Source: a virus
Virus genome (UHGV): UHGV-0179428
Strand: one strand, 5' to 3'
Length of the DNA: 64,000 bases
Below the pieces are notes generated by a model. The model was not told the origin of the DNA, made no database searches, and saw only the letters and a program-made list of their open reading frames with translations. Shown piece after piece: positions 40,669-41,151 of the stretch; positions within the stretch are counted from its first letter, which is position 1; each line of letters begins with the position of its first letter. A program made the position numbers and the translations under genes.

Positions 40669-41151
40669 ATGATAAAGCGTTTTCTTATCGTTTTGGTTGG
40701 TGTTTTTTCGTTGGCAGGATGTGCTTTACAACCGAATAGTAACGGTCAATTCTCGACTGTGCCGGTGGAGCCACATGACATGGTTATTTACACCTGTATG
40801 GGTGTAGAGCAAGATTTTGCGAATTACAAACCTGTCGTCAGCTCGACTAACCTCATGTTAGGGTCAGTAACCGTACTCGATACTGGTGCTAATTGGGTAG
40901 CCACTTGGCCAAACGGTAAGATTGAGTCGCCACAACTTTATAAAGACTTATTAGGTAAAGTTAATGGGAATATTGATCCTATCACTGGACAACGTTACTA
41001 CCGTGTAAATGGTTTACTTTCAAAAACACCAACATTTGCGTATTCTACTTTGGAATATAAAACGGGTGATGGTAAAGGCATTACTTTCTTCCGCTGTATA
41101 GAAGGTGTAGCGCCTGACACTGGAACAATGCTCCATCCTGCGGAACAATAA
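40669..41151 (+). CDS. putative lipoprotein
   Basis: ORF track 40660-41151; ATG at 40669; N-terminal MIKRFLIVLVGVFSLAGC lipobox-like; opposite strand to neighbours; terminator hairpin downstream. Confidence 0.6.
   Translation: MIKRFLIVLVGVFSLAGCALQPNSNGQFSTVPVEPHDMVIYTCMGVEQDFANYKPVVSSTNLMLGSVTVLDTGANWVATWPNGKIESPQLYKDLLGKVNGNIDPITGQRYYRVNGLLSKTPTFAYSTLEYKTGDGKGITFFRCIEGVAPDTGTMLHPAEQ

Follow-up and report, generated by a model that had tools for sequence, protein, structure and literature searches.

A conserved lipoprotein gene beside the fibre genes of enterobacterial jumbo phages, a candidate late receptor-masking factor

A stretch of 64,000 nucleotides from the virus genome UHGV-0179428 (the window) was analysed around a gene at positions 40669 to 41151, whose 160-residue product carries a lipoprotein signal. 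The reading that we favour, although only tentatively, is that this protein is a late and abundant outer-membrane lipoprotein that would mask the phage's own receptor. The lipoprotein signal is conserved in the family, the gene is linked to fibre genes throughout the loci compared and a promoter motif is kept upstream of it; its homologue in phage Goslar is abundant in virion preparations that contain outer membrane, and its orthologue is absent from the virion list of phage SPN3US. The masking step is what we infer, from this architecture and by analogy with the Llp and Cor proteins of other phages. The window belongs to a jumbo phage of ~225 kb, with minimal nucleotide similarity to deposited phages (75% over 400 nt), whose kin are SPN3US (Seoulvirus) and the Erwinia Erskinevirus group among the nucleus-forming Chimalliviridae.

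According to the model proposed, the protein would be exported by the Sec pathway, acylated by the host at Cys18 and sorted by the Lol system to the inner leaflet of the outer membrane, where a tether of ~10 residues would hold a disulfide-closed beta-barrel of 14 kDa against the membrane. Transcription would start from its own late-type TATG promoter, placed back-to-back with that of a DUF7941 fibre gene, and because of this arrangement the protein is proposed to accumulate highly while virions are being built. The lipoprotein would then bind and mask the envelope component recognised by the fibres or tail of the phage, sparing the progeny from loss on debris and lysing cells and excluding related phages from infected or carrier-state cells. 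In this way, an unrelated protein would act by the mechanism of T5 Llp and of T1/phi80 Cor.

A conserved lipoprotein family with a predicted barrel domain

The open reading frame (ORF) lies on the plus strand, begins with ATG and encodes 160 amino acids (aa) followed by a stop codon, with the N-terminus MIKRFLIVLVGVFSLAGC followed by ALQPNS, so that its coordinates, strand, length and LAGC motif were all as the original prediction had described them. The starts of the orthologues fall at the same M[IL]KR methionine as in the window protein, and an alternative GTG at 40660 sits within the Shine-Dalgarno site (Table 1). When compared with near-identical relatives, the gene showed a ratio of non-synonymous to synonymous substitution rates (dN/dS) of 0.06-0.07 and is therefore a functional coding gene. 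It is the sole plus-strand gene between 38791 and 63880, inside a run of ~25 kb of minus-strand genes, and both neighbours lie on the opposite strand, in agreement with the claim that it is transcribed against its flanks. The lipoprotein gene is, in short, genuine and conserved.

The signal was assayed with the PROSITE rule PS51257, which asks for K or R within residues 1-7, an uncharged hydrophobic (h-) region and the pattern [LIVMFWSTAG]2-[LIVMFYSTAGCQ]-[AGS]-C with the cysteine at positions 15-35. A lipobox prediction had been named earlier as one way to check the protein, and the window protein passes this rule with Cys18 (codon 40720-40722) as the predicted acylated N-terminus and Ala as the +2 residue. 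Across the 1769 combinations of ORF and start in the window, no other real gene passes; the other 7 matches fall within other genes. The rule was also passed by 31 of the 34 family members, the h-region and the rest of the signal peptide being variable, and of the three failures two seem to result from over-extended starts, the third having a short signal. LPAM_1 gave weak matches in three family members. The +2 residue was A, T, S, V or Q in all members and Asp in none. In Enterobacteria, lipoproteins without Asp at +2 are sorted by the Lol system to the outer membrane, and by this rule an outer-membrane location is predicted.

The protein matches phrog_9559, a family of unassigned function, with an E value of 3.6e-66 (residues 2-150 against profile positions 2-152 of 166), whereas sequence searches of Pfam, NCBIfam, PADLOC and the PDB found nothing past the signal peptide. 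Its orthologues include gp159 of SPN3US, gp174 of Asesino (named 'Lipoprotein' in UniRef) and gp88 of Goslar, the last at 33% identity. An exhaustive HMMER scan of 1.8 billion representatives returned 14 matches only, and a profile search of 5.8 billion proteins returned 29 clusters, the named ones from phages or enterobacterial isolates; viral contigs were scanned with a profile built from the 13 closer family sequences. No bacterial chromosomal homologue was found in a scan of 185,579 species-representative genomes. The family is phage-only and confined to enterobacterial jumbo phages of the chimallivirus type. In the SPN3US papers that were searched, gp159 is not mentioned, and no functional work on a lipoprotein or spanin was found for phages of this type; a 'gp88' in PMC12931631 turned out to be a protein of a different phage. 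Two third-party (TPA) metagenome records call the lipoprotein an 'adhesin'.

The AlphaFold2 model of the protein has a mean pLDDT of 84, with values >90 across most of residues 31-140, and presents a beta domain of 11 strands spanning residues 28-146. Three cysteines, C18, C43 and C143, are invariant across the family. In the predicted barrel, Cys43 belongs to the first long strand and Cys143 to the last one, so that a disulfide closing the barrel is likely in the model and would suit a periplasmic protein. The most conserved segment of the family lies within residues 71-100 (ESPQLYKDLLGK, 81-100), and the C-terminus, ending in GVAPDTGTMLHPAEQ, is hydrophilic.

Linkage to fibre genes and the signals around the gene

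The 70 nt upstream of the gene have a GC content of 27% compared to 44.8% for the window, at the 0.5th percentile of all 70-nt windows, as had been claimed when an AT-rich upstream region was noticed. The hexamer TATGAC, with only 12 occurrences on both strands of the 64 kb, is found at -70 in the window and 38-79 nt upstream of the lipoprotein start in 16 of the 16 SPN3US-type relatives scored (and, by eye, in locus L022), the surrounding sequence having freely diverged among the loci. A hairpin directly follows the TATG in every orthologous locus, with differing sequences, and TATG plus a hairpin are also present at the equivalent place in Goslar and in L005. The non-virion RNA polymerase of phiKZ uses late promoters whose consensus is T(-3)ATG(+1) (PMC4666361). 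As TATGAC matches this consensus, late expression of the lipoprotein gene from G40602 would be expected by analogy, and together with a second TATG on the minus strand, upstream of the adjacent DUF7941 gene, the motif is predicted to form a back-to-back pair of late-type promoters.

The early-type motif AGATATATATTAC is absent upstream of the lipoprotein gene, where the conserved TATGAC stands instead. A sigma-70 promoter was also considered and discarded, as the matches in the scan were no commoner than in shuffled sequences and none was placed to serve the gene. Elsewhere in the window, an early-type motif TTTCAGATATATATTAC(T/C)T with a hairpin was found at three sites, each downstream of a terminator and upstream of minus-strand genes ending at 10971, 48069 and 52438; in our view this motif resembles the early promoters of phiKZ-like phages, which are of an extended AT-rich type, and it is probably an early promoter of the window phage. 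At the other end of the lipoprotein gene, the terminator originally assigned to it was found, and its hairpin also reads as a minus-strand terminator, common to the convergent gene 41267..41782. An equivalent terminator hairpin is present in SPN3US, SPAsTU and Asesino.

To define the neighbourhood, the window was compared with 21 related loci and, separately, with Goslar (L023), 23 loci in all. A DUF7941 gene was the only invariant neighbour. In all but the distant members, a short DUF7941 gene (~170-190 aa) is directly upstream and divergent, across a common intergenic region of ~90-140 nt, whereas in the distant members the lipoprotein gene is co-directional and directly behind the fibre genes. 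Thus, in Goslar the P1-S-like tail fibre gp90 and the Caudo_TAP chaperone gp89 directly precede gp88 inside a DUF7941 cluster formed by gp86 and gp91-93, and the same fibre-gene arrangement is present in L005-L008. The proximity to host-recognition genes that had been invoked for the window gene is supported, and more strongly than the window sequence could show, by the constant DUF7941 neighbour and by the tail fibre and chaperone of Goslar. DUF7941 proteins are specific to chimalliviruses, are very abundant in Goslar virions and form head-to-tail filaments, which have been proposed to radiate from the peripheral baseplate as a 'fibre cloud' for host recognition (10.64898/2026.04.21.720040); their receptor-binding role is the proposal of this one preprint. 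The short DUF7941 paralogues in tandem (38791-40528 in the window, minus strand) number between 1 and 4 copies among relatives (SPN3US 1, window 3, SPAsTU 4), and their C-termini end in an ELDGFT-like motif.

The remaining surroundings are structural and lytic, as first described, with DUF7941 virion proteins, an M15-like peptidase, a DUF1353 protein and a GH108 endolysin. In L016-L018 and L022, the block of endolysin, DUF1353, M15-like and radical-SAM genes switches to the other side of the lipoprotein gene. The M15 gene, which is absent beside the lipoprotein gene in loci of the Erskinevirus type, is missing there in 11 loci (Asesino, PhiEaH2 and 9 others). The two adjacent radical-SAM genes (35300-37529 in the window, plus strand) are kept across the whole SPN3US/Erwinia group, moving together with the block of fibre and lysis genes.

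Table 1. Features of the lipoprotein gene and its surroundings in the window
Feature	Position	Strand	Basis or remark
Lipoprotein gene	40669..41151	+	Orthologue of SPN3US gp159, Asesino gp174, Goslar gp88; phrog_9559
Signal peptide (aa 1-17) and lipobox L-A-G-C	40669..40722	+	PROSITE rule; kept in 31/34 members
Predicted all-beta barrel domain (aa 28-146)	40750..41106	+	AlphaFold2 prediction
Invariant Cys43	40795-40797	+	First long strand of predicted barrel
Invariant Cys143	41095-41097	+	Last strand of predicted barrel
Shine-Dalgarno AAGGTGA	40657..40663	+	Read from sequence; 6 nt spacing to ATG
TATG motif (within TATGAC 40599-40604)	40599..40602	+	Predicted late promoter (non-virion RNA polymerase type); predicted start G40602
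5' stem-loop of predicted transcript	40603..40627	+	dG -10.7 kcal/mol
TATG upstream of DUF7941 gene	40561..40564	-	TACTATGCAATCC on minus strand; kept at equivalent place in relatives
Bidirectional intrinsic terminator	41156..41183	.	11-bp stem, dG -19.4 kcal/mol, then T-run
Short DUF7941 protein (180 aa), divergent partner	39986..40528	-	Pfam DUF7941; SPN3US orthologue gp160
Two further short DUF7941 paralogues	38791..39321, 39390..39920	-	Pfam
M15-like peptidase, phrog_894	41267..41782	-	Orthologue of SPN3US virion (non-head) protein gp158
DUF1353 protein	41760..42434	-	phrog_1158 annotation 'tail assembly chaperone'
GH108 + PG_binding_3 endolysin	42542..43132	-	Domain match
Two more DUF7941 virion proteins	43194..43670, 43684..44532	-	Pfam

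The linkage to fibre genes was also evident when the alleles of six closely related phages, belonging to two backbone clades, were compared. Between the clades, the M15, DUF1353 and GH108 proteins are 93-96% identical, whereas the lipoprotein is only 71-73% identical, with a dN of 0.23 and saturated dS. Positive selection as the origin of the 72% allele was rejected, given the saturated dS and a within-allele omega of 0.06; the saturation therefore indicates replacement by an imported allele. The adjacent DUF7941 gene (53-62%) and the gp161/gp162-like genes were replaced in the same mosaic fashion, a pattern typical of host-range cassettes, and the differences between the two lipoprotein alleles are concentrated in residues 44-70. 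One short DUF7941 paralogue was found swapped between otherwise near-identical phages. The gp162-like and gp161-like genes (DUF4376 in RefSeq, with weak matches to tail-fibre PHROGs) lie at 37492-38711 on the plus strand, just upstream of the DUF7941 array. They share 52-75% identity between backbones whose identity elsewhere is 93-100%, and may be part of the same host-range cassette.

The lipoprotein signal, the predicted late expression and the vicinity of the M15-like peptidase and the GH108 endolysin, in the window as in Seoulvirus, could also be explained by an accessory role in lysis, in which a late outer-membrane lipoprotein would weaken or disrupt the outer membrane as a spanin substitute, or tune the timing of lysis. 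With o-spanins of the Rz1 type and u-spanins of the T1 gp11 type the gene shares a signal for an outer-membrane lipoprotein and a place near the endolysin, and the window holds no other gene with a lipobox and hence no other o-spanin candidate. We nevertheless consider this role unlikely. A same-strand i-spanin partner and a C-terminal transmembrane segment are both lacking, and the protein is a well-folded barrel of 120 residues, unlike the short proline-rich periplasmic segment of such proteins. Moreover, the endolysin block moves away in the four loci where it switches side and is missing from the vicinity in Goslar-type loci, while the fibre genes keep their place; likewise, the allele replacement tracks the fibre genes and leaves the lysis genes conserved. 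Identity as a spanin proper was rejected in view of the flanking genes on the opposite strand, the hydrophilic C-terminus and the folded barrel.

A more obvious candidate for such a lysis accessory is the conserved gene for a cationic peptide of 34 aa found after the endolysin. This amphipathic ORF (MNWFAKLLALLWKALTSGRKRKDEKRGYEFFWFL; 42444-42545 in the window, minus strand) overlaps the stop of the GH108 endolysin by 4 nt, and in SPN3US, SPAsTU, Asesino and PhiEaH2 the endolysin is likewise followed by positional homologues (NWFxxLMxAxxRAL..RRK). We regard it as a candidate lysis peptide, either holin-like or disruptin-like.

The convergent orientation of the lipoprotein gene and the gene of a virion M15-like peptidase, in the window and in L008, would fit a periplasmic inhibitor of murein hydrolases, acting in the manner of T4 Spackle or of MliC/PliC to block the tail peptidase or lysozyme of superinfecting relatives, or to guard against lysis from without. 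MliC is a small lipid-anchored beta-barrel of the periplasm, whereas the phage exclusion factor Spackle, which targets a tail lysozyme, is not known to be a barrel. Weak barrel similarities were detected in the fold comparison, but they were only generic, no better than those to dozens of unrelated barrels, and Pfam gave no match between a family member and MliC or another inhibitor family at a threshold as lax as E<=1. The hydrolase neighbour, in addition, is not conserved: M15 is missing beside the lipoprotein gene in the 11 loci mentioned above, the Erwinia phages that are listed with M15 are not among the lipoprotein carriers, and Goslar-type loci are without a hydrolase neighbour. An inhibitor of this kind seems unlikely.

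Abundance of the homologue in virion preparations

The proteome of Goslar offers an estimate of the amount of this protein. In virions purified by PEG/CsCl, gp088 (YP_009820773.1; 9001-9504 of our locus L023) was detected with 20 peptides, 78% coverage and an equivalent of ~740 copies per virion, being the fourth most abundant unmodelled protein (10.64898/2026.04.21.720040). The same preprint lists it as of unknown function, and the word 'lipoprotein' occurs in it 0 times (10.64898/2026.04.21.720040). A coverage of 78% would be consistent with detection of the mature part only, since by our estimate roughly this value is expected from the sequence when the signal peptide and the acylated N-terminal tryptic peptide go undetected.

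Such numbers could mean that the protein, or its lipidated form acquired at lysis, is associated with the virion, where it would be bound to the DUF7941 fibre cloud or to the tail fibres and might serve as adaptor, cap or membrane tether. The linkage and the back-to-back late-type promoters shared with a DUF7941 virion gene would fit co-assembly, and the abundance of gp088 exceeds that of PhuZ (~170) and chimallin (~126), which are known contaminants. However, the strictly conserved Sec/lipobox signal exports the protein from the cytoplasm, the site where virions are assembled, and in the virion tables of SPN3US gp155, gp160 and gp167 onward are present but gp159 is absent, even though gp160, the orthologue of the divergent partner 39986..40528, reaches 112-280 spectral counts. 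Peptides from OmpA, OmpC, OmpF, Lpp and Pal are also numerous in Table S4 for the Goslar virion sample (10.64898/2026.04.21.720040), and with host outer-membrane proteins so plentiful in the preparation, carry-over of membrane can explain the presence of gp88 and implies that it is made in very large amounts. A virion-associated role is thus improbable. The specific case that hundreds of copies per particle are truly attached to the DUF7941 fibre cloud, having been picked up from the outer membrane at lysis, appears quite improbable; if it were true, a protein lipidated by the host would be present on chimallivirus virions, where it could serve, for instance, to tether them to a membrane or to cap the micron-long fibres reversibly, holding these inert until the particle meets its next host. 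Other Goslar proteins of unknown function described as 'high-copy virion-associated' could likewise be envelope carry-over.

Receptor masking compared with Llp and Cor

The closest precedent for the masking that we tentatively favour is Llp of T5 (T5.158, the 'Cor superinfection exclusion protein' of RefSeq), a lipoprotein of a virulent phage with a classical lipobox, which masks the phage's own receptor and protects the progeny from debris. In T5, oad (minus strand) and llp (plus strand) are adjacent and divergent with back-to-back promoters, and 39986..40528 and 40669..41151 have the same layout in the window. In contrast, the mature part of the window protein has 142 aa compared to 61 aa in Llp, the window protein is a predicted barrel for which no solved-structure match to Llp was found, and its neighbour is a DUF7941 filament protein where that of llp is a receptor-binding protein of the pb5 type. 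The window protein belongs outside the Llp family, since in our alignments only the signal peptide matches. The Cor lipoproteins of T1, phi80 and N15 have the same proposed role, but no sequence or fold relationship to them was found. Goslar gp88 is by contrast a true homologue (33% identity; tblastn E 1e-14) with an LGGC lipobox, the three cysteines and the same length class, although it is co-directional behind the tail fibre and chaperone genes and the window gene is divergent from a short DUF7941 gene.

The gene had first been proposed as a candidate for superinfection exclusion. What stands of that proposal is a genuine lipoprotein, linked to host-recognition genes in a T5-like divergent layout; what does not is any relationship to Llp or Cor, and the promoter is predicted to be of the late type. 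T5 llp is expressed early, and because the conserved motif of the window gene is of the phiKZ late type, superinfection exclusion early in infection is less likely than late masking.

Several observations weigh against receptor masking as such. The alignment of the family profile to T5 Llp by hhalign covers the signal and lipobox alone, over 14 columns and with a probability of 11%, and no PHROG or PADLOC match to superinfection-exclusion families was obtained; the predicted late-type promoter itself departs from the early expression of T5 llp. The literature search found no experiment on any family member. The excess of gp088 over PhuZ and chimallin in Goslar virions also counts here. Furthermore, L009 keeps a lipoprotein of the window type (98%) beside a different DUF7941 allele (53%), therefore the specificities of the two proteins are not strictly paired, and the conservation of the ESPQLYKDLLGK segment suggests a conserved partner over a variable receptor. 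The probability that is left by receptor masking and by the alternatives discussed falls to some other envelope function.

The occurrence of the phage bears on the possible advantage of exclusion. Copies of the lipoprotein with 97-98% identity were found on IMG/VR contigs of 220-225 kb, and the exact protein on contigs of ~224 kb in NCBI assemblies of Salmonella Weltevreden and other serovars, Shigella sonnei and E. coli. When the exact protein and its 90% cluster were taken together, the contigs (~220-227 kb) came from Salmonella enterica Weltevreden, Bareilly, Enteritidis, Chester and Agona, from Shigella sonnei and from E. coli. Such repeated co-sequencing of a chimallivirus-type jumbo phage with pure cultures suggests a carrier state or pseudolysogeny, and a phage carried in isolates in this way would stand to gain from exclusion.

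Phage lipoproteins beside receptor-binding genes were known already; what is new here is an unrelated and larger family with a predicted barrel fold, restricted to enterobacterial chimalliviruses and apparently late and hyper-abundant. Even if the masking role were wrong, the gene would still be a conserved one with an abundant and exported product. If the role is right, Goslar gp88, so far an abundant 'virion-associated' protein, would be reinterpreted as an outer-membrane lipoprotein, and the mature lipoprotein could be used as bait for the receptor bound by the tail fibres or by the DUF7941 'fibre cloud'. The two 72%-identical alleles on nearly identical backbones may then define exclusion groups, which would bear on the design of phage cocktails and on the persistence of a ~225-kb phage in isolates of Salmonella, Shigella and E. 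coli. Enterobacterial nucleus-forming jumbo phages would thus have evolved receptor masking of the Llp/Cor type independently, with a different fold, late in infection and at a very high level.

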